From Macrostomum lignano (lineage: Eukaryota): 64,000 nucleotides of DNA. The notes under the pieces are model-generated. The model was not told the DNA's origin. It saw only the letters and a list, made by a program, of their open reading frames with translations, and ran no database searches. Position numbers and translations under genes: made by a program. The DNA lies in NCBI GenBank assembly GCA_002269645.1, contig NIVC01001308.1, positions 62,001-126,000 on the forward strand. Direction: 5' to 3'. Below are positions 30,491 through 57,249 of this stretch, one piece after another. Within the stretch, counting starts at the first letter, position 1, and every line of letters begins with the position of its first letter.

Positions 30491-30975
30491 TTAAGTAAAA
30501 GCGCCCCTTCCTAAAGCGAAAAAACGTCTACGAGTATCTTGCTTACCCTCTTCTTCAAAAGGTGCCCCTCTAACAAAACGCCTAAGTTATTTGAAAACTG
30601 TTCCTCCATGTAGTCTTACTTTTAAATCTGCCCTAAAAGTAGAGACAGAGAGCGCCGTGAATATTTAAGAACGGTGCATTTTTTTATCTTCACAACCCTT
30701 GTTATGTCCTCTTCTTCTGCTTCTATACCGACTATTGCCTCCAGGCTACCATCTGACATCAAAGTCAAGTCGAAGAAGCATTATTTAAAATACGAGCTGT
30801 TCACAAGCTTTATTTGCCTCTAGACGGCGCACGTCTTGTTTTTCCTTTGTAATACTGTTAGCCTTCAGCTCTTAAAGAAATAAAAGATTGTACCCTAGAC
30901 TATAGACAAAAGAAGAGAAGCATTAGTGCATTTGCTAAACCAAAAGTCCATACACAACATTCCCCCCTTTGTCAA

Positions 30976-33900
30976 TTAATATCTCAACCGGTCCGGTTTC
31001 TGCAATTTGTCTCTGTCCCTTAGTCGTCTAGGTTCTTTAGCCGATGTGTCAGTGCTCTTGCCACGAGTTCCGTCTGTGTCGGTTGTCTGTGGTTCGTCTT
31101 GCACGGGCACGCTTTGGGCTGCTGGATTTGAAATGTCCTCACTCTGCATTTGCTCACGAGCCAAGTCAGTCTGATCGTCCTGATGCCTCTTCATGATTGG
31201 TGGAATTCGGGTGGGAAGAACGTCTGTCTTGATAATTTGATCAACGTGCCTCTTCCAGATTTGACCGTTGACCTGCAGTCTGTAAGACATTGGTCCTGTG
31301 CGGGTGACCACCTCGGCAGGAATCCATCTGTTCTCTTTCTCCCTTCTGAAATCAAGCGTCAGAACTTTTTCTCCCTCCTGGAACTCCCTCGGCGACGCTC
31401 CTCTATGGCTTTGTCGTTCGGTCACATCAGTCTGCTTATCCAGTACTTTTGTGTAGGTGTCCGGCCTAAGAAAGTCCAATTGAGTCCGGCGCTTGTAGCA
31501 CAGCATCATTTCAGCTGGCGTCCTACCAGTTGTAGAGTGAGGTGTACTTCTGTATCTGAACAAGAAGTTCTGCATACTCAGTATTGGGTCTCCATGCGTT
31601 TTGATTCCGGCTTTAATAGCAGACTTCGCAGTCTGGACCATCCTTTCGCTAAGTCCATTAGTACGCGGATGTCCAACAGCCGTTAAAATTTGACGAATAT
31701 TATTTCGCTTCAAAAACGCACGAAACTCAGATGAGCAGAACTGACTGCCGTTGTCGCTTAAGACTTGCTGAGGAATTCCGAACCTTGTGAAAGTATCTCG
31801 CAGGCACTCAATTGTCTTACTTGTAGTCGCATGTTTCATAGGAAAAATCTCGACCCATTTGCTAGTTGCGTCGACAATGATAAGCCAGAAATATCCGTGA
31901 AATGGTCCCATGTAGTCCAGCTGGATTCTTGTCCATGGCTTCTCTGGCCAAACAAGAGGTTGTACAGGTGCCTGTGCAGGTAAATTTCTTTGCAGCTGGC
32001 AACCTTCACAGCTTCGGACTAGGTCTTCGATGGCACTATCGATTCCAGGGAACCAAACATGCAGCCTAGCGATAGACTTCATAGCAACTATTCCAGGGTG
32101 TCCGTCGTGAAGCAACTCCAGAACCATTCGTTGCACACTCCTTGGAATAACGACGCGCAGTCCCCAGAAAATCACTCCTTGCTCGATACAAAGCTCATTT
32201 CTTTTACGAAAATACTGTTCCAAACCTGGCTCACTTGTTTCTGGCCAGCCGTTTTGGCAGTAGTGAACGACTTTTCGAAGTTCTGCGTCCTTCCGTGTCG
32301 CGGTTCTAATCGTCTCTGCCGTGATCGGTAGCATCTCAAGTCTGACTTCCAGAATTTTGTCACATGAGATGTTCTTGGCTCGATCTGGTAAGCGTGAAAG
32401 CGCGTCCGCATTTGAATGGTCCTCTGTCCTTCGAAATTTGATTGTGTATTGGTGGGCGGACAGAAGTACGGCCCAACGCTGAAGACGACTTGCTGCGATG
32501 CTAGGGATATCCTTTTTGTCTCCAAAGATGGTTAGGAGCGGCTTATGGTCCGTCACAAGCACGAAATGATGTCCAAACAGGTACTGGTGGAACCTTTTTA
32601 CTCCGAATACTATGGCCAGCGCTTCCTTCTCCAACTGCGAGTAGTTAATCTCCGGCTTTGATAGCGTCCTCGAAGCATAGGCAACTGGCCTTTCATCACC
32701 ATTCGGCATCACGTGCGAGATGACACATCCGATTCCATACTTTGAAGCATCCGTTTGTAGAACGAGCTGCTTCTTCGGATCGAAATGCGCTAGCACTCGG
32801 TCAGATGTCAGCGTTTTCTTCACCCTGTCAAATGCAGCGTTGCACTCCTCACTCCAGCGAAACTCCGATTCCTTGCACAACAGTCGATTGAGCGGTACCA
32901 GAATCGACGACAGATTCGGGATGAACTTCGCGTAGTAGGTTATCATTCCAATTAGAGAGCGAACTTCGGTTGCATTTGTTGGTGCCGGTGCATTGTGAAT
33001 TGCCTCAACTTTCTCGTTTGATGGGTGAAGTCCATTTTCGTCAATAACGTATCCGAGGAATGCAATCTTGTTGAGACGAAATTCACACTTCTTTCTGTTT
33101 AAATGCACGCCATAATCTGAAAGGCGCTCCAACACGGCGTTCAACCTATTATCGTGGTCTTCCAGACTGGTTCCAGACACCAGAATATCATCTATGTATA
33201 CAACGACGTCCAGGCCCTGCAGTATTTTCTCCATGGCCTCCTGAAACTGAGCCGGTGCGGATGCCAGTCCCATTGTGAGTCGGTTATATTGAAACAGACC
33301 GAGATGAGTGTTGATAGTGGTAAACCTTCTACAGGATTCTTCCAACTCAAGCTGCAGGAATGCTTGCGAGATGTCCAGTTTGGTAAAATATTTCCCGCCA
33401 TTTAATGTTGCAAAAATTTCTTCTGGTCGTGGCAGAGGATACTTATCGACCTCTAACTGTGGATTGACTGTCCTTTTAAAGTCAGCGCAAATTCTCACTG
33501 ATTTTCCATCGCGCTTGAGAACAGGAACGATTGGCGATGCGAAATCCGATGCCTTCACCTTCGTGATGATTCCTTGGGCTTGCAAACTCTTGAGCTCGTC
33601 CTCAATGAGACCCTTGATTGCAAATGGAACTGGCCGACTTTTGAAATACTTTGGTATTGAATTCTCCTTCAGCACTATATTAGCCTTCAATCCTTTAATG
33701 GTTCCCAATGTCTCAGCAAACACTTGCTCATGCCTCCTTACCAATAGATCCATAGGCTGGACTAATGTGGTCACGTTCACACTCGCAAACTTGTCCCAGT
33801 CAATCTTGATCTTAGAAAGCCAGTCGCGTCCAAGCAGATTTACTCGTTCTCCTGTGACAATCAGTACAGGCAATTGGTAAAGCCTGACGTTGTGGCTAAC

Positions 33901-34280
33901 CACGTCGATTGTTGCTTCACCTAATACTGGGATTGAGTGATCCGTGTAGCTGGACAACCTTACGGTAGTCCTTGAAAGCTTCAGGCCTAGTTGCTTGCTG
34001 GTCTTCTCGTTGATCAGGGTTTTATCCGCACCAGTATCCACTTGAAATCTTACAGCTTTTCCGTTCAGTTCCAGTTCGCACTCGTATGGTGGAGAAGTGA
34101 CATGCGCGACCTGTCCAGTCGAGCACACTGTCCTGACTTCAAAGCACTCCCTGTGGTGTCCCTGACTCGTACAGTTTGAGTCCCTGCTGTGTGAGCTGGT
34201 TGAACTAGCTTTGTCCTGTGCATAGTGCACTCTGCCGTGTCTCTTATGTCTGGACGAGCTGAGTTTCTTTTGCTTTCCAC
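30976..34280 (-). CDS. pol: Outer element pol portion (protease, RT, RNase H, integrase)
   Basis: FQVDTGAD protease, YIDDIL RT, QTDASKYG RNase H, HHCC zinc finger and D-D-E integrase, with no internal stops. In frame with gag once the nested insert is removed. Confidence 0.95.
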
Positions 34281-34492
34281 TGTAGAGTGTTCTACCGCCC
34301 GTTAAAAAAGGTAAAAAGAAGATAATCGTATAATGCTACTATAAGTAAGTAAGTACACGCATGTACGCCTAAGTTTTGAATGAATCACGCTACCAGAAAA
34401 AGATGTTACCAAAATGATACGCAATAAGCCATTTCCCCTTTTAGCGCAACACGTGAATTGTCATGATACTATTTTGGATCAAAAAACTTGCC

Positions 34493-34498
34493 TATAAA
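34493..34498 (+). promoter_or_regulatory. LTR TATA box of the inner element
   Basis: CTATAAATACAAGCG, conserved in the related solo LTR at 49466-50297 and largely in the 47890 copy. Confidence 0.65.
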
Positions 34499-35856
34499 TA
34501 CAAGCGATCTGAAGCGGTACCGGAGCCATTCTCCCCACGGAAGAGGAGCGCTCCGAAGAGGAAGCCTTAGGAGGACTTCCTGATATACCAAGTCAAACGA
34601 GACTCGGTCGAGTTGTTGCGGTAAGCCTTCCTTATTTGCGCCCGTTGTGTTAGAGACGTCTCGCTCAAGTCTCTTGAGACTTGAGTCTATTTGAGTCTGT
34701 TGAGACTCTTGAGTCTGTTTAGACTCCATTGGTTGCAGTCTCCAGAAGGACTGCCCCTGATAGATCTTAGAGGACTATCAGTGGTTTCCGGAGCTATACC
34801 TAGAGTGCATAGAGGCACTGCTAGAAGAAGGAGGCTTAATTCAAACCGCTGTTCGGCGCAGGGTACCCATTGTTGCTACGAGGCCTCTGATTGGTCCTGA
34901 CGGAAGATACCGGCCGGAAGAAATTATCGGAAGTACAAGAGGAACCAGGACCAGAGCAACTGAAGAATCAAGGCGCCTGATCTACGAGATCTACTGACGA
35001 GTTCCTAGCGAGTACTACTCAAGAAATTCAAATCCGGATTAAAGGTAATTAAATACCTTCGTTTGACTTACTGGGTTGCCTAGCTGTTGAGCTAGAAGTG
35101 AGTGTTCTTTGATTACCAAAAGTCGTGTAATAAGGAACACATCAATTGGTGATCTCGCCCTCTCGGCACTACTCAAACTTTGAGCAATAGCCCTGATCAA
35201 GCTATTGTAAAGTGACGAAAGAGCGACTTCATTAATTTTGCGCGCACGTGTTAACACTTTTCAAGTCCGTTACGTTTTGAAACTCGAGTAAAAATTTTTG
35301 GTGAACAGGTTTGAGCATCTGTCAATTTTGAGTACAGTTTGAGCACGCGTGTTAAATTTTGTTTTAACGAGCTCGAGCAAGTGTGAGTTTAAAACAAAAC
35401 CGAAACTAACTTCGTCGGTACACTGAAAACAAACCGAAAATAAAAGAATCGTCGACGCAAAACAAACAGAAAATAACTGAAACATTTGCCGGCACAAAAA
35501 CTAAAACAAAACCGAAATTAATTGAAACTTCGTGAAGAGCGGAGTTAATTGACAAAAGAAGGAAAGTCAAAGAAGAGAAAAAAGCCTTTGCAAAGCAAGA
35601 AGACAAAGTCCACTTCAACTTGAAGATACACTTTGCGGGACGCCGCATAAGTGCGAAATCAGCAAGCGAACAGAACAAGTTCATTTGAGGACAACCAGTG
35701 GCAGCAAGCCACACTGCATTCGAAGCCAGCGAATAACAAATCGACACCACAAGACAATTCGTTACAGTCGAGGTTTATTCCGAGGCAAACACCACACTGG
35801 ACGATCCGTTACAAATCGATCCAGATCTTGAACTACCGTTCTACCCTATCAACAAC

Positions 35857-38800
35857 ATGGCGCGGCGCAATCCAACGGTACACAGAGACATCAAAGAAAC
35901 GGTCGGTACTTTCTCGATGGAGAAAGATTTTAACACATTTGTCGACCATTTTGACCTGGTATGTAGGGAATACAACCTACAAAATCCAGAGAAGGCACAG
36001 CTGCTGCCACCTCTTCTCCAAGGTACTGCGCGAGAAATTTACGGCAAGCTGGATGCGGCAACACAGCAAAATTATCCAGCACTAATCATTCAACTGCGCG
36101 CGCATTTCAACCGTTGCGGCACAAACAGATCAGTGCTGCTGCACAAGTTACATAACAGAAGGATGCAAGCAACAGAATCCTTCCTCGCCTTTGTGGACGA
36201 TATCCGCCAGATAATTAAGGCACTGCATCAGCCACCGCTGCAAGCTGCGGACCAACCGCCACTGGGAGCGGCAGAATTGGCCGCCAGAGAAAGACAACGA
36301 TTGATGGATCGTGAACAAAACCTCATCCTGCACGTAATAAACAACGCACAGCCGTCACTTCGGGATAGACTTTTGCGTGAAAATATCGAAACCGAAGAAG
36401 ACCTTTTGCGTTGCGGAATGCAGTGGGAAGCAAGCGCTCCACTAATGACAACCGGCAACAATGAAGTGCAGAAACTGACACAGCAACTAAACAAGCTGAT
36501 GCAACATCAAACAGCCGTTATCGCCGAACAAAAAAGACGAAACGAACAAGCCTCAGCCAGATGTTACTACTGCGGACAAGAAGGACATTATCAGATTAAT
36601 TGTCCTCATTGGTCAACAAGATACGACAAATCACGACAGATATTCAACAATCAGAAGCCGCAGAAACCATGGCAGCAATATCAAAATCGCCAACAACAAG
36701 GCATAAGACGCTTCGGAAATGATAGACGCTTCGGAAATAATGACCGCTCCGGAAATAATGGCCGCTTCGGAAACGAAGGCCGCTTCAGAAATAATGGCTA
36801 CAGACCGCGAAACGCCAGATACATGCCCAAGCAACCAACGCAAGCGATGCAACGATACGCGAATGCCATCACGTACACACCGGAAAATGAGCAGCAGGAA
36901 CAGCAAGTGTTCACAATTGACGACTTGGAAATGGACTTCACAGTCCCGGAACTTGACATCAGCTTGATCGAAAAGAAGACGACGCACGAGGACAACACTG
37001 ACAACACAGAAGAGGCGAATGAAACCGAAATGATCAAATTAAAAGAGACCACCGGAGACAGCAGAGAAAACAGGAAGAAAGTAAACCACAAGAAAAGGGA
37101 GGAGACGGAGAGCGACACCGGCAACGAAGAAAAGATAAAGACTGGCAGAGAAAACAACTATGAATCGACAACAGTGGATGACGACAAAACAAGCACAAAA
37201 GACAAAGAAATGAAGGAAGAAGAAGAATGTATAAGTTACGGCAACGATCACGACTGCGACGTGCATGATGACACGAACGGATACCGAGCCGAAGAAGGAA
37301 TGCAGGAAGAACTGAGAGCGGAAAATCTAAGCTCCGACAGCGATCAAGGCTACGAAATCCAATGGAAAGATGAAGAAATGGAAAAAGAACAGATAAAAGA
37401 AAAGCCGAGTTCCGACAGCGACGAATGCTACGAGATCCGATACAAACGAAACGGTGAAGCCTATATTCAAACGGTCGACTACAAGGCAGAAAAAAGATAC
37501 CAAACGCAATGGAGTGAAACAACGGAAACATCGGAAGAAGCTGCAGACGAAGATACTGAAATAACCAAAGAGCAAAGCAAATCAGAAGCCTTCCGCCTGA
37601 ATCAGCCAATGGAACAACCGAAAGAATACGATGCGGACATGGAGGATAACGAATGGCAATCGCGGCCAATGCCAGCAAAGACAACGGCAAGGTCCAAGAA
37701 GTGGAAAAACTGGCTATACTGGATCATCGTGATACTACTGATAGCAGTAGTCGCCAAAGCAACGGCAACGGAAAAGCCAATGATTTGTCCAACGGAGGCG
37801 CATATCCAACCGATGATCTACAAGATACCAACCGACATCAAATGCAGCTACTTCAAGACAAACCAGACGAAGCCAAAGAAGATTACACTCGATCTCTACA
37901 AGGCTAACATCAAGAAGCATCGACAACTCGGAATAGTGTGCTTTAGAGACAAGCACCTAGTGGAAAAAGTTTGGCGAGGACAATGGAACAGAATTCGATT
38001 TTGGCAACACGAACTACATGTGTCGCACGCTGAATGTCTACAATGGAACCAAACACTGTTCTCAAAGGATGGTCAGCTAGAACCGGATGAGAAAGTGGGG
38101 GAGGCACAACTTTACCGAACAAAGAACTCAGCAAACGGACGATATGTACACTTTTCGGAAACATGGACTAACTACATGACACGAAACAGTTACCTAATCA
38201 GGAATATTCCATTCTACCACAATCCTTTTGAAAAAATGGAGTCGCTACAACTGCAATTAAGCGACTGCCGATACAGCAAAGGATGGTGTCCAACGCCGAT
38301 ACTGCGGAATGAGGAACTATACAGCTTACCGTTGAGTCCAACATATCATCAAGACTATCGATGGCAAATTATACGCAGAGGCGACTCACGATATGAAGAA
38401 CCATCTAAGTCACGACAATACTTCCTCGCGTGGGAAGTTGGGCCGGAAATTGACTGCAAGCTGCAAAAGTATCACACAGTTGAAGGAGGTCTACTGTCAA
38501 ATACGTTTTTGGCAAAGTCAGGAGACTTGGCACTGACGTTTCAAAAGAAACCAGTCGAGCAAAAACTGAAATGCAAGGATACAGACAAGACACTATTCAT
38601 CTCGGAACAAGAGATACCAGTCTACGTAAAAGATGACGACAAACAAACCTTTCTGGCAATCATCAACGGAACGTATCAACAGCAGGAACAACAGAACAGA
38701 CGACGACGTGACATCGAACGTCCCAAACTGGTATCAAACCGACTACTGTCAGCAAAGATAACGGCTTTGGATCACAATCTACACAACCAGTTAAACCACT

Positions 38801-40482
38801 TGCATCGAACACTGGTCCAGCTAACTTGCAAAATGCACGCAATCAACTTAAATTATGCCAGACAAAACTACTATGTCAACCCTACGATGACTTTTCGTAA
38901 AATCACCGGAATGACGAACGTTTTGGCAGTTCCAATATACGAGCATCTGTTGATATACAAGTGCACGCCGATACAGCACTTCAACATCTTGCCGTCAAAC
39001 ACGTCAACAACCTGCTACGATAAGCCAAGGATTGAAGCGTTCTACGAAGGAAGACGAATTCAAGGATTCTTGGACACGGTACACAACATCATCGTTGGCA
39101 CCGCAATACCGAGACCTTGCACCACAGCAGCAAACTACTATCAACTGGACAATGCACTACACGTCATCAAAACAACTGGAACGACAGCAAACATCACAGA
39201 ACCGGAAGTAATCGTCGACGAAAACTACGACATGGAGGATTTGAAAATCCGATTCAACAGAACGAAGTATACGCCATTCGCCGATATCCAACTTGACGAG
39301 ATAACACCAGGATGGACGATCAACGACTTCTTGCAAGCGTTCATCACCCAACGCAAGATGATTCACCAGCTGTTCACAAGAAAGGACAAAGAAACCGGGA
39401 CAGGAAGATTTCCCGTCCTTGTTTCAATGGACAGCGCCATCAAATCATTTTGGACAAACAGCTTCTGGGAGCTGCTAAATGGAAGAGGCAGTCTCTATCA
39501 AGGATTCATCTTCTACGGTGCTTGCATTGTGTGGATTGTCACGGCAATCTTCGTCATTTCATCGATCGTACGGTGCCTCAGTCAAACTTGTCCAAGAGCT
39601 AAGAAGACAGTGAATGCCATAATGCAAAGAACGACAACGGAAGGCGACAACAGTTTAGAACTAACAGAAACTGCACATCGTGAGGTTCAAGGGCAACCGA
39701 CACTAGCAACGCGGCTATATCCATCGATTCCGACAACACCAACGGCACCAAGGATACAACCACCCAACTATCAAGCAGAACAGCACGAGCCAAAATGGCC
39801 GGAAAACTACGTCTGTACGCTACACGCCGAGATTGGCAAAGCAATGGCTCAGGTCATTGTCAACAACTTGCCATGTCGAGCACTGCTGGATTCAGGCAGC
39901 TCGATCACAGTCATCTCGCAACAATTATGCAACAAGCTACGACTCGCGGTACGACCAGCAGCAATCGCAGTTGCAGGAGCAGGAGGACATTCACTCAACA
40001 TACTAGGAAAAGCAGATATCGACTTGAAAATTGCTAATAAACAGCTGACGGTCCCGACGTACATCATCGACAGACTACCAAACCAAGACGTCATCGTTGG
40101 AATAGACACGTTCAAACAGCTTCGACTACCATTGACCTTCGACTTCAACAAGCAAACGTTTAGGATCGACACGGTGGAGCAACCACTGATCAATCAGATT
40201 CGAGTACTACCGAAAGTAACTCTGCAGCAAGATGTCATCATCCAGCCTGAAAGCGCATGCTGGGTCAGAGCGAAAGCGACCAGCGCGGCAGATGAAGCAA
40301 TGATATTTGATCCGCACAGGAGAGTCACGGCGAAACATCAAATCATGATGCCTACGGCACTAGTGCTGGTTGCAAAAGATAAACAGCTGCCAGTACAAAT
40401 CTTCAACCCGAACGCGGAAATGGTTCATCTACGACAAGGAATGTGCATCGGTCATCTCAACACTCAGCATCGGTTATGCTGA
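35857..40482 (+). CDS. ORF1 polyprotein, 1541 aa: Gag (CCHC) - acidic linker - signal peptide - gB-like Env ectodomain - TM - late-domain tail - aspartic protease
   Basis: CYYCGQEGHYQINC knuckle (about aa 236), hydrophobic WLYWIIVILLIAVVAKATA (aa 619-637), RRRR furin site (aa 948-951), TM at about aa 1216-1238, and LLDSGS protease (D1345), all in one uninterrupted frame. Confidence 0.9.
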   Translation: MARRNPTVHRDIKETVGTFSMEKDFNTFVDHFDLVCREYNLQNPEKAQLLPPLLQGTAREIYGKLDAATQQNYPALIIQLRAHFNRCGTNRSVLLHKLHNRRMQATESFLAFVDDIRQIIKALHQPPLQAADQPPLGAAELAARERQRLMDREQNLILHVINNAQPSLRDRLLRENIETEEDLLRCGMQWEASAPLMTTGNNEVQKLTQQLNKLMQHQTAVIAEQKRRNEQASARCYYCGQEGHYQINCPHWSTRYDKSRQIFNNQKPQKPWQQYQNRQQQGIRRFGNDRRFGNNDRSGNNGRFGNEGRFRNNGYRPRNARYMPKQPTQAMQRYANAITYTPENEQQEQQVFTIDDLEMDFTVPELDISLIEKKTTHEDNTDNTEEANETEMIKLKETTGDSRENRKKVNHKKREETESDTGNEEKIKTGRENNYESTTVDDDKTSTKDKEMKEEEECISYGNDHDCDVHDDTNGYRAEEGMQEELRAENLSSDSDQGYEIQWKDEEMEKEQIKEKPSSDSDECYEIRYKRNGEAYIQTVDYKAEKRYQTQWSETTETSEEAADEDTEITKEQSKSEAFRLNQPMEQPKEYDADMEDNEWQSRPMPAKTTARSKKWKNWLYWIIVILLIAVVAKATATEKPMICPTEAHIQPMIYKIPTDIKCSYFKTNQTKPKKITLDLYKANIKKHRQLGIVCFRDKHLVEKVWRGQWNRIRFWQHELHVSHAECLQWNQTLFSKDGQLEPDEKVGEAQLYRTKNSANGRYVHFSETWTNYMTRNSYLIRNIPFYHNPFEKMESLQLQLSDCRYSKGWCPTPILRNEELYSLPLSPTYHQDYRWQIIRRGDSRYEEPSKSRQYFLAWEVGPEIDCKLQKYHTVEGGLLSNTFLAKSGDLALTFQKKPVEQKLKCKDTDKTLFISEQEIPVYVKDDDKQTFLAIINGTYQQQEQQNRRRRDIERPKLVSNRLLSAKITALDHNLHNQLNHLHRTLVQLTCKMHAINLNYARQNYYVNPTMTFRKITGMTNVLAVPIYEHLLIYKCTPIQHFNILPSNTSTTCYDKPRIEAFYEGRRIQGFLDTVHNIIVGTAIPRPCTTAANYYQLDNALHVIKTTGTTANITEPEVIVDENYDMEDLKIRFNRTKYTPFADIQLDEITPGWTINDFLQAFITQRKMIHQLFTRKDKETGTGRFPVLVSMDSAIKSFWTNSFWELLNGRGSLYQGFIFYGACIVWIVTAIFVISSIVRCLSQTCPRAKKTVNAIMQRTTTEGDNSLELTETAHREVQGQPTLATRLYPSIPTTPTAPRIQPPNYQAEQHEPKWPENYVCTLHAEIGKAMAQVIVNNLPCRALLDSGSSITVISQQLCNKLRLAVRPAAIAVAGAGGHSLNILGKADIDLKIANKQLTVPTYIIDRLPNQDVIVGIDTFKQLRLPLTFDFNKQTFRIDTVEQPLINQIRVLPKVTLQQDVIIQPESACWVRAKATSAADEAMIFDPHRRVTAKHQIMMPTALVLVAKDKQLPVQIFNPNAEMVHLRQGMCIGHLNTQHRLC

Positions 40483-43352
40483 TTGAGCACGCGACTCCAC
40501 GAATAACGGAGGAAGAGTTCCAAAAGAAAATCAACCTGGACGACAGCCCGATTACGGAACAACAAAAGAAGAAAGTTCGACAACTGTTGTGGAAGTACAA
40601 CGAAGCCTTCTGCCATCATGATTACGACATCGGACGAGCTAAAGACATTAAACAGGAAATCAAGCTTCTACCGCACACGGAACCAATTCAGTGCAAGCCG
40701 TACCCGATCGCCAAGCATCTGCAACAACACTTTGACGAAATCATCGATAAAATGCTAAAGCACGGCATCATCAGCAAAGCTATTTCGGCTTACTCCTCAC
40801 CGTGCCTACTGGTACAAAAGAAGGAGACTAACGAAAGACGACTCGTATGCGACTTCAGACTGTTGAACAAGTACATACCGACGGATCAGCAAAGCCTACC
40901 GAAGATCTCCGAACTATTAGCGAAGCTCAACACGGCAAAACTGTTCACGGTATTCGACCTACGTCATGGATTTTGGCAAATAGAAATCGACAAGGAATCG
41001 CGCCAGTACACAGCCTTCAAGACCTACAATGGACAAGTATACGAGTACAATCGATCGCCGATGGGACTTAGCAACAGCCCAGCAACGATGAGTCGACTCA
41101 CAGCATACATGCTTGCAGGATGCACGAACCTGCTGCACTATGTCGACGACATTTTGGCCTATGGAGAGGATTTCGAGCGACTCTATGAAGCTACGGAGAA
41201 GGCCCTGGCGCTCATTCAACGCCAAGGTCTTAAGCTGCAACCGACGAAATGCAAATTCTTCCGAGACAACGTGCGTTACCTAGGACACCAAGTGACAGCC
41301 AGAGGAATTTCACCGGACCCAGACAACGTGGAGAAGGTAAAAAGGTTTCCTACGCCAACCAGTATAACGAAGGTCCAATCATTCCTTGGACTTGCGCAAT
41401 ACTTCAGGAAGTTCTTACCTAACTTCGCAAAGACAGCAAAGCCACTGTACGACCTGCTCAAGTTCGACAAATGGAAGCAAGACAACTGGACACAAAGACA
41501 ACAGGAAAGTTTCGACGAAATTAAACGACAGCTGACATCAGACGCACTGCTACAGCATCCGGACTTCGACAAGCCCTTCATCATCGAGACAGACGCCTCA
41601 GGAACGGGACTCGGAGCAGTCCTACTACAGGAAACCGAGGACAAGAAGGAACGACCTATTGCTTACGTCAGTCGAGCACTCAAACCAAATGAGACAAAGT
41701 GGTCAGCTACGGAACGAGAGCTACTAGGAGTCTTGTTCGCCCTGCGACAGTTTCATTACTACATCTATGGCTCTCCAATACAGACGATAGTACGCACGGA
41801 TCATGCACCATTGACCTACGTCGTAACTACAAAAGGACAGACCAACAACCGACTCATCAGGATGACACTCAAGATCCAGGACTACAACTACAAACTCGTC
41901 TACAAACCAGGAATTACCAACAAAGCCGCGGACGCCCTGTCAAGAGCCTATGAAGTCAACGCCATTCATCCAATCCCTAACATCAAGGAGTTGGTGGATG
42001 AAACCGAGCGCGATAACTTCTACCAATCGGTTAAAGACGACGACAAGAACATCAAACTCAGTCCCATGGAACGAAAATTCCTACGCAAGCAACGACAACA
42101 CCTAACAATCAATAAGTCACGGCTCTACTGGATGAGCGACAATAAACCTAAGATCTACGTACCATATTCGTTTCGGCAAGCAATTCTCAACGAGCTGCAC
42201 GACAACCCACTCGCCGGACACCTGTCGGCCGCAAAGACCATCGCGAGAGTGGAACAATACTACTTTTGGCCAACTATGTATGGCGACATCAAGCAGTATT
42301 GCAACAACTGCCATTCATGTGCTGCATCAAAGACAGGACGACGACAGAAACCACAGCTACAGTCCATTCCGAAGTCGACTACAATGGACTGTCTAAGCAT
42401 CGACATCACCGGACCACTGCCACCGAGCTGTCTCCAGGGCATCGCCTACACCTACATCCTAACCGCCTTGGACATCTTCTCGAAGTTTGCTATTGCCATA
42501 CCGATACCGGACATCACAGCTCAGACAATAGCAATGAGTTTCTTCAATGAAATCATTTGCAAGTACGGCACGCCGAAGAACCTCACCTCGGACAACGGAT
42601 CGCAGTTTACGTCTCAACTATTTCAGCAAGTTGTGAAGATTCTCAACATTACGCAGATCTACACATCGACCTACAATCCGAAGGCAAACATGGTTGAACG
42701 GTTTCACCGCAACCTGCACGAGATGATTACACATTTCGCGCACCAACAGCCGGAAGACTGGATCATCTACCTGCAATCTGTAACAATGGCTTACAACAGC
42801 GCTATTCATCGATCAACAGACAATACGCCATTCTTCCTAATGTTTGGACGAGACTTCCAACCGCCGAATCTGCTCGCACAGCAATTGCTACCATCGCAGT
42901 ACGTGGAAGTACCGACTTCCATTCAGAAATTCGTCACGCAACTACACCTCGCATGGAAGATCGCCAAGCACAACATTGACAACCAGGTGGCTCTGACCAC
43001 CGGCAACGACGCGAGATGGACAACCCTGACGGCCGGCGACATCGTTTACCTGCACTACCCGCCACAGCAGACGCATAAACATGCACAGAAGTATAAAGGA
43101 CCCTATCGAGTGGTCCAACTAACGTCACCAACAACGGCACGCCTGGCTAATGTGCAAGATCCACATCAGCATCAATTTTACGTGCACATTCATCGACTAA
43201 AGAAGATCAACACTGACACCGCGACGTTTCTACCCACATTGGACAACGCCGATCGCACGCGTTCAACGAACCGCCACATCGCGACGAAGCACGAGGAGAC
43301 TCAAACGACAGATGTGAGCCAGCCACATGGCTACAACCTACGACCACGCTAG
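40476..43352 (+). CDS. pol: ORF2 RT - RNase H - integrase of the inner element
   Basis: LHYVDDIL, IETDASG, HHCC, D-D-E and GPY motifs. The frame is -1 relative to ORF1, open from 40383, with first ATG at 40476. Confidence 0.93.
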   Translation: MLIEHATPRITEEEFQKKINLDDSPITEQQKKKVRQLLWKYNEAFCHHDYDIGRAKDIKQEIKLLPHTEPIQCKPYPIAKHLQQHFDEIIDKMLKHGIISKAISAYSSPCLLVQKKETNERRLVCDFRLLNKYIPTDQQSLPKISELLAKLNTAKLFTVFDLRHGFWQIEIDKESRQYTAFKTYNGQVYEYNRSPMGLSNSPATMSRLTAYMLAGCTNLLHYVDDILAYGEDFERLYEATEKALALIQRQGLKLQPTKCKFFRDNVRYLGHQVTARGISPDPDNVEKVKRFPTPTSITKVQSFLGLAQYFRKFLPNFAKTAKPLYDLLKFDKWKQDNWTQRQQESFDEIKRQLTSDALLQHPDFDKPFIIETDASGTGLGAVLLQETEDKKERPIAYVSRALKPNETKWSATERELLGVLFALRQFHYYIYGSPIQTIVRTDHAPLTYVVTTKGQTNNRLIRMTLKIQDYNYKLVYKPGITNKAADALSRAYEVNAIHPIPNIKELVDETERDNFYQSVKDDDKNIKLSPMERKFLRKQRQHLTINKSRLYWMSDNKPKIYVPYSFRQAILNELHDNPLAGHLSAAKTIARVEQYYFWPTMYGDIKQYCNNCHSCAASKTGRRQKPQLQSIPKSTTMDCLSIDITGPLPPSCLQGIAYTYILTALDIFSKFAIAIPIPDITAQTIAMSFFNEIICKYGTPKNLTSDNGSQFTSQLFQQVVKILNITQIYTSTYNPKANMVERFHRNLHEMITHFAHQQPEDWIIYLQSVTMAYNSAIHRSTDNTPFFLMFGRDFQPPNLLAQQLLPSQYVEVPTSIQKFVTQLHLAWKIAKHNIDNQVALTTGNDARWTTLTAGDIVYLHYPPQQTHKHAQKYKGPYRVVQLTSPTTARLANVQDPHQHQFYVHIHRLKKINTDTATFLPTLDNADRTRSTNRHIATKHEETQTTDVSQPHGYNLRPR

Positions 43353-43472
43353 AGTTTCGAGAACAACCCCGTGTAGTGACCGGGATAAAGAATAGCACTA
43401 CAGCTTCGCAAGCTTGTCGTAAAAGGCGACTAATCCGAGCGACACAAAGACAGCGACAAATTGACAACAATT

Positions 43473-43718
43473 ATGGGCAACGCACTGTCGAAACAGGCGC
43501 CCCAACTTCAGCAGCTATATGACTGCCCGATATGTTTAGCTGATGACTTGGCTGTCAAGCCACCGACTATTTGCATCAATGGACATAAAATTTGCGGACA
43601 ATGTTTAAGTGATTCACACTATATTCAGCCCTGGCAGAATTGTCCCCTCTGTAGAGATAGTTTGCGACAATGCGCCTATTGTTATTCTTGGCGCACGTTT
43701 CAATATTGTAACCAGTAA
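43473..43718 (+). CDS. ORF3: small RING-finger protein with N-terminal myristoylation-like motif (81 aa; 144 aa if the TAA is read through)
   Basis: MGNALSK start and C3HC4 RING CPIC-x12-C-x3-H-x2-CGQC-x12-CPLC. The same frame stays open after the TAA until 43907, with a second degenerate RING-like unit. Confidence 0.7.
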   Translation: MGNALSKQAPQLQQLYDCPICLADDLAVKPPTICINGHKICGQCLSDSHYIQPWQNCPLCRDSLRQCAYCYSWRTFQYCNQ

Positions 43719-44899
43719 CATTTTATTTGCATGCACGGTTTGAAGCAAACCGCTAGTAGGGGCATTATAGGATGCCCCTTATGTAATAGTATGCCGCGAG
43801 ACTGCACGTTTCGAAAGTGGTGTCGTATCAAACCTGATGCCACTCGATGTCTACGCGATATTCGAGTTTTGACCGCAATATGTACTGAAAAGTTTTTAGA
43901 GTTTTGACCAAACCCTCGCTTCTCTAGACGCGCACAAAATCAATTGTTTATTTCCTATATTAACAGATCACCACAGAATTTTATTATTTCATTGTTAAAA
44001 CTCGGGACGAGTTTTTTCGTAAAAAAGGGAGATTTTGTAGAGTGTTCTACCGCCCGTTAAAAAAGGTAAAAAGAAGATAATCGTATAATGCTACTATAAG
44101 TAAGTAAGTACACGCATGTACGCCTAAGTTTTGAATGAATCACGCTACCAGAAAAAGATGTTACCAAAATGATACGCAATAAGCCATTTCCCCTTTTAGC
44201 GCAACACGTGAATTGTCATGATACTATTTTGGATCAAAAAACTTGCCTATAAATACAAGCGATCTGAAGCGGTACCGGAGCCATTCTCCCCACGGAAGAG
44301 GAGCGCTCCGAAGAGGAAGCCTTAGGAGGACTTCCTGATATACCAAGTCAAACGAGACTCGGTCGAGTTGTTGCGGTAAGCCTTCCTTATTTGCGCCCGT
44401 TGTGTTAGAGACGTCTCGCTCAAGTCTCTTGAGACTTGAGTCTATTTGAGTCTGTTGAGACTCTTGAGTCTGTTTAGACTCCATTGGTTGCAGTCTCCAG
44501 AAGGACTGCCCCTGATAGATCTTAGAGGACTATCAGTGGTTTCCGGAGCTATACCTAGAGTGCATAGAGGCACTGCTAGAAGAAGGAGGCTTAATTCAAA
44601 CCGCTGTTCGGCGCAGGGTACCCATTGTTGCTACGAGGCCTCTGATTGGTCCTGACGGAAGATACCGGCCGGAAGAAATTATCGGAAGTACAAGAGGAAC
44701 CAGGACCAGAGCAACTGAAGAATCAAGGCGCCTGATCTACGAGATCTACTGACGAGTTCCTAGCGAGTACTACTCAAGAAATTCAAATCCGGATTAAAGG
44801 TAATTAAATACCTTCGTTTGACTTACTGGGTTGCCTAGCTGTTGAGCTAGAAGTGAGTGTTCTTTGATTACCAAAAGTCGTGTAATAAGGAACACATCA

Positions 44900-45657
44900 C
44901 CACCTCCGGAATCTTTAGTCCTGTCCTTTGTGCGGCAGGCATCACTTTTATGTCCCACTCGACCGCACTTGCTGCACGTCTTGCTACGGTAGGGGCAGTT
45001 CTTTGCCCAGTGATCTTGTGCATTGCAGCGGAAGCATCCAGATTGATTGTTTCTGTTGTTCTTCTCTGACAAGCCGTCTGTCAGATTTTTACTGGCTCTC
45101 GAAGACTTCACCGCCTGGATTGCACCAGTTGACGAAATTGTCACCACACCTCTTTCCGCTGCTTCCATCGCAGTCGCAAGGGTAAGTGCTCCAGTTAGTG
45201 TCAGTGTGTCTTCTTGCAACAGACGCTGCTGTGTCAGGCGATTCCTTAGGCCGACAACGAACCTGTCTCTCAGTGCCTCGTCCAAGAATTCATTAAAACC
45301 ACACGTGGCAGCCAACTTCCGCAGACTTGCGATGAAATCGCTCACATTTTCTCCTTCATGTTGGGCTCTGCTGTGGAAGTTGAATCTCTCGACAACGATC
45401 TTAGGCATTGGGTTAAAATGCTCCCTCAGGGCCTTGACTTGATCGTCGAAGTTCACATCCTTGGGCTTCTTTGGTGACAGCAGGTTGCGGAGCAATTGAT
45501 AGCAGTCATTACCAATCACTGTAATCAGATTTGCTCGCTTATGTGCCTCCTCGGTCACTTTGTTTACGACGAGAAACTGCTCGAGTCGTTCTTCATAAGC
45601 TTCCCATTGCTCCGGTTTAGCCACGTCGAACTCTCCGATTTTTACACTCGTCGCCAT
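44900..45657 (-). CDS. gag: Outer element gag portion (two CCHC-type knuckles), interrupted by the nested insertion
   Basis: The ATG overlaps the PBS (ATGGCGACGAG). Mag-like N-terminus WEAYEERLEQFL; CFRCNAQDHWAKNC and CSKCGRVGHKSDAC. Confidence 0.92.
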
Positions 45658-46249
45658 TGTTATGTCCTCTTCTTCTGCTTCTATACCGACTATTGCCTCC
45701 AGGCTACCATCTGACATCAAAGTCAAGTCGAAGAAGCATTATTTAAAATACGAGCTGTTCACAAGCTTTATTTGCCTCTAGCCGGCGCACGTCTTGTTTT
45801 TCCTTTGTAATACTGTTAGCCTTCAGCTCTTAAAGAAATAAAAGATTGTACCCTAGACTATAGACAAAAGAAGAGAAGCATTAGTGCATTTGCTAAACCA
45901 AAAGTCCATACACAACAACCCTGTCAATGCATCAAAAAACAAAACGGCATGTAAGCTGCAGGACAGAAAAAATCAAATTTTCAGCTTTTTAAATCGCAAA
46001 TTTCAGAGCCATGCGTACAGCTATAGCTATTTCTAGGGGGTAGAGAAGTGAGAGGAGAGGGAAGAGGAGAGGGGAGGGGAGAGGAAAGAGAGTAGAGAGG
46101 AGAGAAGAGGAAGGAGAGAGATCTCCAAACACAGTAGCCTACTAAAAGTAGTAACATAAAATTATGAACACAAATTTAAAAATAGCTATGTGTCATACTC
46201 TATTTTTAGTAATACCAGTCATATCACGCAAACAGTGAGTGGCTATGCT

Positions 46250-47850: not shown

Positions 47851-47889
47851 GTGTGCGTCAGGGCATGACCTGCATAACCATCCACATTG

Positions 47890-49041
47890 TGATGTGTTCC
47901 TTATTACCAGACCTTCTCTGTAATCAAGGAACAATCACTTCTAGAACTTTAGCTAGGCAACCCAGTATTCAACTGAAGGTAGTTATTACCTTGAGTCCGG
48001 TTGAGTAGTTCTCTTCCTGTGAGTTGATCTCGCAATAGGAATCGGTTAGATCAGTTGATCTGGCGCCTTACTTCTTGTCTCGGGTCCGAGTCTTCTTTGT
48101 ATTCCTTGCCGGCCGGTATCTGTAGTGTAGACCAATAGGAAGCTTCCAATTAATAATAGGATCCTTGCGCCAACAGCGGTATCAAATAAGCCTACTCCTT
48201 CTAGCAGTGACTTGATGCACTCTAGGTATAGCTCCGGTAATCACTGATAGTCCTCTAAGATCTATCAGGGCAGTCCTTCTGGAGATTGCAACCAATGGAG
48301 TCTAAATAGACTCAAGAGTCTCAACAGACTCAAACTAAACTCAAATGAGACGTCTCAACAACAGGCGCAAATGAGTAAGGCTTCAGGAAGTCCTGCTGAG
48401 GCTTCCTCTTCGGAGCTCTTCTCCTTCCGGAGGATTTCTTGGCACTTGTATTTATAGGTAAATGAACCTCCTTCGAGGTCGTCCATCATCTTTTTCGTAA
48501 ATGTCAAAGGGTCACGCTTTGGTTGCTGTCAAGCATGACAGGGAAAAAAAATTGCGCAACTAGTCTACTGTAAACGCGCATGATTGGTTACCGTAGCTGG
48601 TAGCTTTTGATTGGTTCATCCGGGTGCAAACCGGGTGCAAGCCAAATGATGAATCGCAGGTGGGGTTTGAACTGACAAATGTAGGTCGCACGTGACCAAT
48701 GATGAGTCGCAGATGGGGTTTAACTTGACAATTGTAGGTCACGCATGATTGGTCGGTTGCAAAAAATAACATGTTCGACTTTACTCTCTTGTGGTTGGCT
48801 GACTAGAATATACTTGTGATTCAGTACTTAATTTTATACATGCTACTTATCTTACTACTGAGTTACTACTGGCCCAGCTGCTGAATTTTTACAATTTCTC
48901 GTCGATATCTTTAACCTTCTTTATTCAGTTCTTCATTCAAATTACTTATTGAAACTATATAAGTGAGTATTTAGTCAGAATTATTGTGCAAAAAGTACAC
49001 TGGCTCCGTAAGGAATATTGGGCCAGAATTGCGCCTCCACA
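47890..49041 (-). mobile_element. Solo LTR related to the inner-element LTR (right boundary uncertain)
   Basis: 47890 to about 48460 is the reverse complement of the inner LTR from the TATA region to its 3' end, with substitutions. The U3 side is divergent and no TSD was confirmed. Confidence 0.7.
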
Positions 49042-49465
49042 AAGAGGTTCTCATCTATAGGTTTTAGTTATAGAAAAGTCCTTGGCCTAGTTATCCATAA
49101 AAATCCTGAATAAAACACTGCTCCCATCATTAAAAGCCTCGCTATACGTTATCTGCAGATGCCTCAGCTTCCCGCATGCCCGTGCATTGCCCAGCACGTC
49201 TGTCGCTCAGGAGTCAGGAGTGAGGGAGAGAGACTGACTCCATATATCAACTTTATTGAATCCTCTACTTGGCTCCCTGCTGCAATGTCTCGCTGCCTTC
49301 AATAAAGTTGCGCGTTAATTTTAGCAATTTGTCTGCATGCTGGTTGAGTTGAGCCGTTGAGCTTTGGAAGCAACGAAGAGATGCAGTGGGAGAGCTGGCA
49401 TATGGTAATGCATGCAGAGCAGTCATTGCTGACTTCGCTACTCCAACAGGATCCTCAAGCCAAAG

Positions 49466-50297
49466 TGATGTGTTCCTTACTACCAAGACTTTTTAGTAGT
49501 CAAGGAACAATCACTTCTAACTTCTTTGCTAGGCAACCCAGTTATCAGATAAAGGTACTTCTTACCTTGACTTCGATTGGAGATATCTCTTCAGGAGTTC
49601 TCTTGTAGATCTCGCTTGGATCTCTCTTTGATCTCGTAGATCAGGCGCCTTGGTTCTCCTGTTGCCCTGGTCCTGGTTCTTCTTGCACTTCTGATGAAGT
49701 GACTTCCGGCCGGTGTCTGCAGTCAGGACCAATCAGAGGCCTCGCATCAAATAATGGGTACCCTGCGCCGAATAGCGGTTTCTCCTTAGCCTTCTCCTTC
49801 TAGTAGTGCCTCTATGCACTCTAGGTAATGCTCCGGTAATCTCTAATAGATCCTCTAAGATCCTCTACTCAACAACAACTGGCGCAAATGAGAAAGGCTT
49901 ACCGCAACAGCTCGACCGAGTCTCGATAGACTTGGTGATCAGGAAGTCCCTCTAAGGACTTCCTCTTCGGAGCGCTCCTCTTCCGTGGGGAGAATGACTC
50001 CGGTACCGCTTTGGGCCGCTTGTATTTATAGACGATTTTGCAGGCCAAAAATAGTAACATGACTCATGGGTTGCGCTATAATTGGTAACATGACTCTTTG
50101 CGGCTATTATTAGAAAGTGATTCATTCCGTTGCAATAAATAGTAACATGATTCATTCTGCTGATATAAATTGTAACATGATTCATAACATGATTCATCGT
50201 TAAAGTTTAGGTCCGCATGCGTGCACTTACTTACTTACAGTAGCATCCATCCTAGGATTATCAATTACTTCTTTTGCGGGAGGTAGAACACTCTACA
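49466..50297 (-). mobile_element. Solo LTR (832 bp) of the inner-element family
   Basis: Termini TGTAGAGTGTTCTAC..GGAACACATCA on the - strand, and a 4-bp TSD AAAG on both sides. Confidence 0.92.
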
Positions 50298-51279
50298 AAA
50301 GCATCTCACAGTGCTTTGATGGGTTGAAAAATCCAAAAGCGCCATCTCAGATGTGCTCAGATTTCAACAGCCATTTAGAAAGTCAACAGGCAGCACTCAC
50401 GATTGTTGCTAACTACGAGAGCGTAATATTTTATCATAAGGATTCATAAAATGTGAGGATAGAAAGTTTTGTATATAATTGTTAGAAAAAAGTACGAGAA
50501 AAAAGGTTAATATAGTATAGCGACAATTACAGTAACTTACAGCTACTGTAAAAGTATCGAAGAGTCTCGCTACAGACATTACAAGCTTAATGACTCTGGT
50601 TAGCTAAAAATATTATTCTCACTTCTGTCACCGCAACATAAAGTTATTTCTTCATCATTGAGTGCTATAAGGTAAGCTGTCAAAGCTTAGTACAGCGATC
50701 AGTTTTAAGAACGAATGTTAAAACAAAGACCTGCTTTAATAAGCAAAAGCAACTCTACAATGGGGTCAAGAAGCAGACGGGTTGAAGAAAAACCTTCAGT
50801 TGTAAAAGCACTTTAAAATTACAAAGAAAACGATCATTTCATGCAGGCATGCTGCGCCACCAACCTAAACCAAAGCTGCTAGAGCTTGCATTAAATAAAT
50901 TTCTGTTGGATAAAATTTGTCCTGAAATTATTGGGGTCGTGACTCGACAAATCAATTAACGCAGCAGCTGACCTGCAGGAAGCTTTACGAACTCCCCACT
51001 AGCCCAGAACTGAAAAATTCACTAAATATGATTAGTGACACAAGGCTAAACAGTCTAGTTTAAATTCCAGAGGTTGGAATTTAAAGAGCTTAATTTTAGT
51101 AAATAATTACGGACAAGCAAGCAATCATTCATTCAAACATACAAATCTTAGAGATTTAGTGTATTTAGATTACTTCATCCCTCTCGGACGGTGCAATTTA
51201 TTCTCTGCAGGCACTTTAATTCTCTTTGATTCAACAGCAAATCCCTTCAATACTCTCGCACATCACAGTTTTCAGCTCA

Positions 51280-54383: not shown

Positions 54384-55199
54384 CCAGATGCTGCTGTGCC
54401 CGTTCACCTGTAAAAATATTTCAAAGCGATTATACGATAGAAATGCGTCTTACAACCAGGTATTAGTTCAGATTGATGACCGAGAAGCCTTCTAGGTGCG
54501 AATTTAAAAGGCCGAGAGGCACAGGCAGTTGTTACTGTAGTCGTAGCGAGTCATTCGCTTCTATGCTGGGTAGCAGAATGGCTGCCACCACTTCGCTAAT
54601 CATTTTCTTGCCTTTGAACTTTAGCTTCTGCCGGTTGGTGAATATGAATATGAGTTATTGAGAATATATGAGCTCATGGGAGAACTGCTAAGATGCCGAG
54701 GCTTAACGGAGAATCTCTAAGATAGTTAGATGTCGAGGCTCATGGGGGAACTGCTAAGATGTCAAAGCTTATGTGGGAATCGCTTAAAAGTATGTGGCAT
54801 TAACAAGCTTTAGGAAATTAACAATAGCAACTGGTACTCGTAGATAAACTCGAAATTAATTAAAAAAATGTATATCTTTCTTTGTTGCCTCCCTGTTGGG
54901 GGGGGGGCACAGAATGCTAGTCTACTATACTAAAAAAACGCATTTTGATTTAACCCAATAATTTGATAACCAATCGTCACCTTGCGAATCTCAATGGTAG
55001 TTTTGTTCAGCTCTCGACACGATTGGTTGCGAATTTCGCCTATGATGCTGAATGACTCGCAGGCAGAAAACCGCGCCTATCCAGGTGAATGTTGGCCACA
55101 ATGTCTCCGGCGCAAAGACAGCTGAACAAGCTGCAGCACGACCTGGCTGGGGATCAGAAGTTGTAAATGGGAATCCCATTTTAATCCCATCCCTCCTCC

Positions 55200-56320
55200 C
55201 TGATGCTTCAGTGGCGCCTCCTCCTCCCCGATGCCTCAGTGGGTGCCTCCTCCCCGATACTTCAGTGGGCGCCTCCCGATGCTTCAATGGCGTCTCCTCC
55301 TCCCCGATGCTTCAATGGCGCCTCCTCCTCCCCGATGCTTCAGTGGTGCCTCCTCCTCCCCGATGCTTCAATGGCGCCTCCTCCTCCCCGATGCTTCAGT
55401 GGTGCCTCCTCCTCCCCGATGCTTCAATGGCGCCTCCTCCTCCCCGATGCTTCAGTGGTGCCTCCTCCTCCCCGATGCTTCAGTGGCGCCTCCTCCTCCC
55501 CGATGCTTCAGTGGCGCCTCCTCCTCCCCGATGCTTCAGTGGCGCCTCCTCCTCCCCGATGCTTCAGTGGTGCCTCCTCCTCCCCGATGCTTCAGTGGCG
55601 CCTCCTCCTCCCCGATGCTTCAGTGGCGCCTCCTCCTCCCCGATGCTTCAGTGGCGCCTCCTCCTCCCCGATGCTTCAGTGGCGCCTCCTCCTCCCCGAT
55701 GCTTCAGTGGCGCCTCCTCCTCCCCGATGCTTCAGAGGCGCCTCCTCCTCCCCGATGCTTCAGTGAGCGCCTCCTCTTCCCCGATGCTTCAGTGATGCCT
55801 CCTCCTCCCCGATGCTTCAATGGCGCCTCCTCCCCTCCGATGCTTCAGTGGCGCCTCCTCCTCCCCGATGCTTCAATGGCGCCTCCTCCTCCCCGATGCT
55901 TCAATGGCGCCTCCTCCCCTCCGATGCTTCAGTGGCGCCTCCTCCTCCCCGATGCTTCAATGGCGCCTCCTCCCCTCCGATGCTTCAGTGGCGCCTCCTC
56001 CTCCCCGATGCTTCAATGGCGCCTCCTCCTCCCCGATGCTTCAGTGGTGCCTCCTCCTCCCCGATGCTTCAATGGCGCCTCCTCCTCCTCCCAAATGCTT
56101 CAGTGGCGCCTCCTCCTCCCCGATGCTTCAATGGCGCCTCCTCCTCCCCGATGCTTCAGTGGCGCCTCCTCCTCCCCGATGCTTCAATGGCGCCTCCTCC
56201 TCCCCGATGCTTCAGTGGCGCCTCCTCCTCCCCGATGCTTCAGTGAGCGCCTCCTCCTCCCCGATGCTTCAGTGGGCGCCTCCTCGGCTCCTCCCCGATG
56301 CTTCAGTGGGCGCCTCCTCC
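55200..56320. repeat. 28-bp GC-rich minisatellite (ATGCTTCAGTGGCGCCTCCTCCTCCCCG)n
   Basis: About 40 copies; it produces the spurious 444-aa ORF and overlapping ORFs. Confidence 0.97.
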
Positions 56321-57249
56321 TTATTATCGTCGATGTAAACTTCCTGGGACGCGTAGATTTCCCTGTCCTTTTCATTGCCTTTGTCAGATTGAACCTGGCT
56401 GCTTCCGAATGGCGTGACTTCAATGCCTGTAGGACCAATTCAGGACAGCGTTTCAATCAGGAATCTTCACAAATAAAAAACACAACAAAAGAGACCACTG
56501 CCATGAGAAACTACTGTAGAGGGACACAACACTCGCAAAGTTCACTCAAAGGCCGAGGCACGTAAAAGTTTAACAAAATTAAAAAAACTGAAACCGGTGT
56601 TCATTAAACGGACTAGCTATTTTGGATAAATTCGAATGGCCTATCGCTACAAACTTGTTAACTCGGTCAAGAAAAATCCCCACTAAAAATGCACCCAGTC
56701 GAGAGAAACAACGCAAATTTTGACATAACCTTGCCTAATTGCCACACTGGGGCCAGCAGTATTTCTAAGAAATAAAAATATACATGTTGATCTGACTGCT
56801 CCGTTATCTTAAGTATTAACGTAACATCAGGTAAACCACAAACTGGCTTAATTTTCTAGCTATCTGATCCTGACCAGGCCGGTAAACAGACTGCGGGTTG
56901 ATCTCGGAGTCTAGAAATTCAATGCTGAACTGTCAAAGTTTCATATTTCAGGCCGACAAAACAACTCGGTTACCTTAATGAGCTTTGATCAAAATCGCTC
57001 TTAGGACTTTTTTCAATCAAATATTTTTTGAGCAGACTTAGAATCTTGCCGTGCCGTACATACAGACTGATGCTGTACTTTCTTGAAAAGAAAATTCTGG
57101 TACAGCCTCGCGGCAAATGTATTCAGAAGTGTACCAATTATAATGTACATCTTGGGACTACTTGTATACATCTTATGACCAGAATATTCCTGCTGTCTGA
57201 AAGTCAATGATTGATACTACTGAGCCGGAAATGTTAAGTAGTTAAATCA

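Follow-up and report, generated by a model that had tools for sequence, protein, structure and literature searches.

A stretch of 64,000 nucleotides (nt) from the genome of the flatworm Macrostomum lignano (assembly GCA_002269645.1, contig NIVC01001308.1, positions 62,001 to 126,000 of the forward strand; hereafter the window, numbered from its first letter) contains a long terminal repeat (LTR) retrotransposon of the Ty3/gypsy type at 34281-44899, in which an envelope glycoprotein (Env) is encoded in frame between Gag and the aspartic protease (PR). This raises the question of whether the arrangement is the native layout of a family of elements and how a membrane glycoprotein could be produced and assembled from the middle of a polyprotein. 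The element is likely to be a recent copy of a multicopy GAG-ENV-POL family of M. lignano with an Env of the herpesvirus glycoprotein B (gB) type, very probably the catalogued Mlig_errantivirus_2, which would assemble by way of a signal internal to the polyprotein. A single frame runs through the coding region of the family, two membrane segments flank Env, and Env, with a fold of class III, is subject to purifying selection.

The open frame in the window spans 35737-40482 and, from its first ATG at 35857 (with A at -3 and G at +4), gives an open reading frame (ORF) of 1541 amino acids (aa), in which Pfam places a CCHC knuckle at aa 236-251 and, at aa 1332-1421, an aspartic protease. A hydropathy scan finds exactly two strongly hydrophobic segments, at aa 620-638 (with A-K-A-T-A at 633-637) and aa 1216-1246, and the ectodomain between them (aa 638-1215, 578 aa) holds 6 N-glycosylation sequons, 12 cysteines and the sequence RRRR at 948-951. 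An earlier note on this DNA had described an ORF ordered Gag with CCHC, acidic linker, signal-like segment, ectodomain, transmembrane segment (TM), tail and protease, in an element with identical LTRs; the ORF, the order and the LTR identity all hold, as does the ectodomain length of about 580 aa, whereas its description as Cys-rich does not, since 12 cysteines amount to 2%. The features of the element are as follows, with RT standing for reverse transcriptase, RH for RNase H and IN for integrase.

34281-35144, plus strand: 5' LTR, 864 nt, TG...CA, 100% identical to 44036-44899
34277-34280 and 44900-44903, no strand: target-site duplication CCAC, 4 nt
35147-35160, plus strand: primer-binding site (PBS), 14 nt complementary to a tRNA-like 3' end plus CCA
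35145-35856, plus strand: leader, 712 nt, containing no ATG
35857-36609, plus strand: Gag, with a capsid-like part at aa 1-235 that weakly matches DUF1759 (E 2.8e-4), followed by the CCHC knuckle at aa 236-251 (Pfam)
36874-37656, plus strand: linker of acidic character and low complexity, about aa 340-600, which evolves fast and differs among subfamilies
37669-37767, plus strand: signal-peptide-like segment, aa 605-637, with basic n-region, hydrophobic core and A-x-A end, internal to the polyprotein; cleavage predicted
37768-39501, plus strand: Env ectodomain, predicted fusogen of class III (gB-type), with RRRR of the furin type at nt 38698-38709
39502-39831, plus strand: Env TM (from aa 1216) and tail of about 80 aa, in frame into PR
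39850-40119, plus strand: aspartic protease with DSG motif (Pfam Asp_protease_2, E 1.1e-9)
40455-40482, plus strand: frame break in the PR-RT spacer, in this copy only (assembly error or private mutation)
40383-43352, plus strand: rest of pol, with RT, RH and IN (Pfam) in Ty3/gypsy order
43473-43718, plus strand: shortened accessory ORF, 81 aa, starting MGNALSK and including a single complete RING-HC; it opens a double-RING cassette
44021-44032, plus strand: polypurine tract
44036-44899, plus strand: 3' LTR, 864 nt

The element measures 10,619 nt, and its pol order (PR-RT-RH-IN, by Pfam) is that of Ty3/gypsy, with an RT 32-41% identical to that of other GAG-ENV-POL elements and a PR-RT spacer that has no Pfam match. 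The T-arm plus acceptor pattern expected of the primer occurs at 7 places in the genome and the reversed control pattern at 0.

The layout is not a matter of chance, because the Env segment has at least 76 matches in the same genome, of which 21 (20 from among the top-scoring ones and one divergent copy) were taken in full. Gag to the end of IN forms a single frame in 7 of these 21 other copies, among them a subfamily with 63% Env identity, and the single-frame product of the family has about 2,440-2,500 aa in the order Gag-Env-PR-RT-RH-IN. Gag through PR is a single frame in 12 of the 21. A chimeric assembly or a nested-insertion artefact inside the ORF was ruled out, because numerous copies, and several species, show the same arrangement.

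In the window copy two overlapping frames are present, which is what would be expected if a two-frame layout were native, with Gag-Env-PR ending at 40482 and RT-IN reached by programmed frameshift; this we consider extremely improbable. There is no slippery heptamer at the site, the public protein P0001 reads from PR straight into RT, and comparison with one continuous copy shows a single frame break in the window copy, near codon 1537 (about nt 40465), that is found in 0 of the 21 other copies. In addition, the contigs of 4/4 public runs, which speak for the family rather than for this locus, differ from the window at the break (depth 1533/2085, 38.5/38.5, 40.9/40.9 and 92.7/92.7). The second pol frame (40383-43352) is a consequence of this copy's break and not a family feature. 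The end of the ORF after PR, presented earlier as the layout of the element, is accordingly peculiar to this copy, and the in-frame fusion of Gag, Env and PR is a family trait whose extent had been understated, given that it continues through RT, RH and IN. Frame-changing indels in 20 sequences were of the same sign in 53/53 cases and mostly private, in a count from which the reference and divergent copies were excluded, as was a single subfamily-boundary event in 6 copies. Same-sign and mostly private indels are the pattern expected of assembly error, and on this general knowledge they are read as mostly such errors. The synonymous distance jumps along the element within one pair, from 0.03 to 0.9, and the subfamilies therefore recombine. 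Between subfamilies, copies L021, L025-L028 and L040 are 94-98% identical to L029-L039 in Env and only about 45-55% in the linker.

The identity of Env emerges from profile and structure comparisons. Its match to the Pfam family Monjiviricetes_fusion lies below the cut-off (E 1.8e-5), the same family is matched by 18/30 members of the Env alignment, and a profile of 30 Env homologues matches gB of Epstein-Barr virus (EBV; E 9e-13), whereas a single-sequence search of the PDB with Env gave no match. An AlphaFold2 model (pLDDT 75.5, pTM 0.50) resembles herpesvirus gB in Foldseek (E 3e-21, TM-score 0.46) and, against BFVD, matches nyami-, chu- and rhabdo-like G proteins and gB, with nyavirus G among the best. 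The Atlas likewise groups Env with Monjiviricetes, rhabdovirus and gB glycoproteins (score 0.95, at a recognition below the usual level). As modelled, the fold of Env is that of a class III fusogen resembling herpesvirus gB, in agreement with its earlier description as a viral envelope glycoprotein.

The ratio of nonsynonymous to synonymous substitution rates (dN/dS), from three pairwise comparisons, is 0.04-0.09 in both halves of the ectodomain, 0.05-0.06 in PR, 0.01-0.02 in RT-RH, 0.03-0.05 in IN and 0-0.03 in Gag; for the linker, whose identity between copies is 24-92%, it is 0.34-0.42. These sequence comparisons indicate that Env is under purifying selection as strong as that on PR and IN. 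They bear on the idea that the element moves only intracellularly and that Env is a passenger or an assembly tether, no longer a working fusogen. In its favour, an in-frame Env cannot bear stops or frameshifts, so that its openness alone proves nothing. However, neither a passenger nor a tether sits easily with an ectodomain whose dN/dS resembles that of PR and IN and is much lower than that of the linker, with a furin-type site retained by each of the three scanned copies and by many homologues, or with the full class III fold of the model, and we regard the idea as improbable.

How Env would reach the membrane was addressed in 53 Env homologues from a representative library, 28 of which were testable; 25/53 were dropped because the Env start was uncovered or the sequence begins <100 aa before Env. 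A hydrophobic segment was defined as a 12-mer of mean Kyte-Doolittle hydropathy >=2.0 lying <=55 aa before Env. Such a 12-mer lies just before Env in 28/28 homologues, 7 of which belonged to the alignment that placed Env, and further upstream in 1/28, and a Met <=25 aa before the hydrophobic core occurs in 3/28. CCHC precedes Env in 20/28, with a PR motif after Env as well in 12/28 and also an RT motif in 6/28. Pfam confirmed the Gag-Env-Pol order in several homologous proteins of 2,000-3,000 aa. P0004 (2852 aa) represents a second Gag-Env-Pol polyprotein family of M. lignano (Env 29% and RT 41% identical), and P0017 is a nematode Env homologue with PR-RT-IN behind Env. In the homologous polyproteins P0020, P0038 and P0053, two protease-like motifs lie behind Env or to either side of it.

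This pattern favours an internal signal in one polyprotein, as far as sequence comparison can tell, and gives the earlier suggestion of such a signal comparative support. The competing view is that Env, or Env-Pol, is made mainly from a subgenomic RNA starting at Met605, by an internal promoter or by cis- or trans-splicing, the hydrophobic segment then serving as a normal N-terminal signal peptide and the join to Gag being secondary. It draws on Met605 itself, since in the window and in 18/20 close copies a Met lies 15-17 aa before the core, and on the env mRNA of Oikopleura Tor3b/4b, which comes from an internal promoter (PMC4402516). In contrast, the nearest Met of the divergent subfamily copy is 53 aa upstream of the core, and few homologues have one close by. 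The linker, moreover, is stop-free and in frame across subfamilies that are 24-55% identical there, which would be unneeded without read-through, and a Gag-only product needs a stop that the family does not have. A subgenomic Env route is therefore possible in the window family, on the sequences compared, but not general, and as the main source of Env we judge it unlikely. No GT..AG joint was found among the joints listed, and 3 runs presumed to be RNA span 30/30 bins; as these are contigs, they are neutral on transcription and splicing.

For the single polyprotein with an internal signal, the following course is proposed from what is generally known about Sec61 topology, signal peptidase, furin and the maturation of retroelements. 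Translation of the LTR transcript would begin at the ATG at 35857, with Gag produced in the cytosol, until the internal signal, its basic side remaining cytosolic, opens translocation. Signal peptidase would cut at the A-x-A end (aa 635-637) and leave Gag and the linker on a membrane stub, while the ectodomain would enter the endoplasmic reticulum to be glycosylated, trimerised and cut by furin at RRRR (951). The TM would then halt transfer, so that PR-RT-RH-IN would be left in the cytosol on the Env tail, and Pol would be packaged via Env and not as Gag-Pol. Clustering of Env in the budding particle would allow PR to dimerise and release capsid, RT and IN, and the enveloped particle could move between host cells, probably from soma to germline or stem cells. 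The double-RING proteins, which probably come from mRNAs of their own and act as E3 ligases or adaptors, may counter host silencing, which is the weakest step.

Besides the position of Met605, several points weigh against this account. Topology, the 1:1:1 stoichiometry of the earlier note, processing, particles, infectivity and transmission are inferred. Equal amounts of Gag, Env and Pol would be unusual for an enveloped retroelement, and no means of making Gag in excess came to light: the 4 sequences scanned have no in-frame slippery heptamer in common, and a shared slippery site was rejected on the same ground as a source of Gag-only or Gag-Env-only products. A strong C-terminal TM went undetected in several homologues by a simple hydropathy scan. 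Furthermore, 14/21 copies are interrupted before the end of IN, and in 5/21 the frame is lost in the short tail that joins the Env TM to PR, at one or the other of two shared positions (L022, L023 and L024 at codon 1262-1263; L025 and L026 at codon 1247). These shared breaks would yield Gag-Env without Pol and may reflect either duplication of loci or a genuine form that lacks Pol. Finally, the identity with Mlig_errantivirus_2 is a match of features and not a sequence comparison.

That match is nevertheless close. In supplementary file 1 of Chary and Hayashi (eLife 2026, PMC13524379), the entry Platyhelminthes_Rhabditophora_Mlig_errantivirus_2 is a Macrostomum lignano element with an HSV/gB-type Env (HSV, herpes simplex virus), with LTRs at 0-863 and 9727-10591, compared with the 864-nt LTRs and 10,619 nt of the window element. 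The reverse complement of its PBS, GCGAGATCACCA, lies at offset 865-877, and the window has the same 12-mer at the same offset; the likeness also includes 16 near-identical copies. By these features the window family is very probably Mlig_errantivirus_2. The same study describes, among Nematoda, Bryozoa and Platyhelminthes, solely gB-type Env in GAG-ENV-POL order, in several clades, and cites Sacco et al. 2022 for nematodes with env before pol. This contradicts the statement in the earlier note that nematode env-bearing elements normally carry env after pol, and the novelty it implied is not supported. The GAG-ENV-POL layout is already known and the family very probably catalogued; the P0004 family is absent from the Platyhelminthes table rows of PMC13524379, as far as those rows show.

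In the passages covered, the published treatment handles GAG, ENV and POL as three reordered ORFs, whereas the window family has one frame. Its main text has no terms for fusion or polyprotein, frameshift, single ORF, RING or zinc finger, or accessory genes, and its discussion covers neither the single frame nor the internal signal nor the RING cassette. The single frame or the RING ORFs may be shown in its figures or code repository, in bioRxiv supplements or in earlier Macrostomum LTR catalogues, which lie outside the survey. The covered part of one Macrostomum LTR family catalogue (PMC12801592) does not contain the word 'glycoprotein'. In the literature surveyed, which did not include Sacco et al. 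2022, no experimental study of Gag-Env-Pol polyprotein processing or assembly was found. UniRef includes a protein with the label Macrostomum lignano that shows 97% identity.

The nematode elements named NERV (Sacco and colleagues, J Gen Virol, 2022) are reported to combine a continuous gag-env-pro-pol ORF with a Nyamiviridae-like glycoprotein and with additional small ORFs. As so described they share the continuous frame with the window family, where it is seen in 7/21 copies and broken in the window copy. The Macrostomum element is placed in RT clade S in the table of PMC13524379; of the nematode and bryozoan rows on the same page, the majority belong to clade R. The check by RT phylogeny that the earlier note had proposed agrees: a tree of 13 rows sets the window element apart from the nematode P0017 with support 97/94. 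With NERV defined by a nematode host and the nematode RT clade, the window family falls outside. It is a GAG-ENV-POL element of the HSV/gB type, an errantivirus as PMC13524379 broadly uses the name, with LTRs, a tRNA PBS, the corresponding gene order and a gB-like ectodomain between membrane segments.

Insect errantiviruses (gypsy, ZAM) and the Oikopleura Tor elements likewise combine a Ty3/gypsy pol with a membrane fusogen and a proposed spread from soma to germline. In these, however, env is a separate ORF after pol, expressed from spliced RNA or an internal promoter, and is F-type in gypsy and ZAM (PMC13524379; PMC4402516). The window element does not have the separate env downstream of pol, F-type or class I, that characterises the insect Errantivirus genus and Retroviridae, and belongs to neither. 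The Tor elements were rejected as a precedent for env before pol, as their env follows pol (PMC4402516); precedents exist for internal env promoters and for extra ORFs, none of them RING in the passages covered (PMC4402516, PMC5408684).

The order capsid, signal, glycoprotein has a parallel in alphavirus and flavivirus polyproteins, in which an internal signal follows the capsid and host signal peptidase and furin act, and foamy viruses offer Env-dependent assembly and an Env leader. Their sequences are unrelated, with class II or class I fusogens where the window family has class III, and in the window family, an integrating LTR element, one chain carries the glycoprotein and, behind it, the replication enzymes.

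Behind IN, the 81-aa ORF of the window is the stump of a longer gene. Two tandem paralogues are present in 7/21 copies (L021, L027, L028, L035, L036, L038 and L041), with sizes of 222 and about 210 aa (one damaged), or 216 and about 200-250 aa in the divergent copy; the remaining copies have shortened accessory forms, and three genes in tandem occur elsewhere. The cassette was also located at C1063, C1064 and C1405 of genome G000. Each full gene encodes a pair of C3HC4 motifs and, towards the C-terminus, a helical part, with zinc ligands invariant at 16/16 positions in 6 sequences that are 20-73% identical. The genes are under purifying selection, with dN/dS about 0.09 and 0.19 and dS near saturation. 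An accessory profile matches the TRIM5 RING (E 8e-6), and a model (pLDDT 84) compares with E3 RINGs at Z 4-5 and a root-mean-square deviation of 2-3 over about 50 residues. The accessory proteins thus combine RING-HC spacing with a modelled RING fold and may have the E3 ligase activity this predicts. The first match in the Atlas, to viral RING clusters (score 0.91), is a weak lead. Among similar-length proteins, to which the homologue search was confined, 0/93 and 0/571 candidates passed, and BFVD gave no match at E 0.001. As a double-RING cassette was also not found in the literature surveyed, this cassette of 1-3 genes is seemingly undescribed. The accessory ORF of the window starts with the motif MGxxxS, which predicts N-myristoylation and is absent from the ORF of the divergent copy as called.

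The element is itself inserted into an env-less Ty3/gypsy element on the minus strand (window 30700-45917; LTRs of about 260 nt, 99.2% identical; 5-nt flanking repeat ACCCT; gag 44900-45738, pol 30976-34276), which it interrupts at the gag-pol junction. Both insertions are young, because the LTRs of the inserted element are identical and those of its host 99.2% identical. Two older LTR remnants on the minus strand (47889-48430 and 49463-50300), a few kb away, have 72-85% identity to the family LTR, and numerous minisatellite arrays with units of 17-43 nt, at 7300-30500 and 55000-62700, take up a large part of what is left of the window.

Taken further, the polyprotein may represent a new route, in which the chain crosses the membrane of the endoplasmic reticulum twice, Gag is carried on a cleaved internal signal, Pol is the tail of Env and PR is switched on by Env, together with double-RING ligases of its own, one of them N-myristoylated, that serve budding or the removal of host defences; we advance this tentatively, its odds being somewhat short of even. 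An N-myristoylated RING protein would echo arenavirus Z. Were this true, it would be an assembly mode unknown in retroviruses, joined to a 'complex' flatworm retroelement, and if the accessory proteins are E3 ligases, an invertebrate retrotransposon would be carrying lentivirus-style accessory genes. As a young multicopy family in a laboratory flatworm, the element makes Gag-Env-Pol processing testable on native proteins and RNAs.

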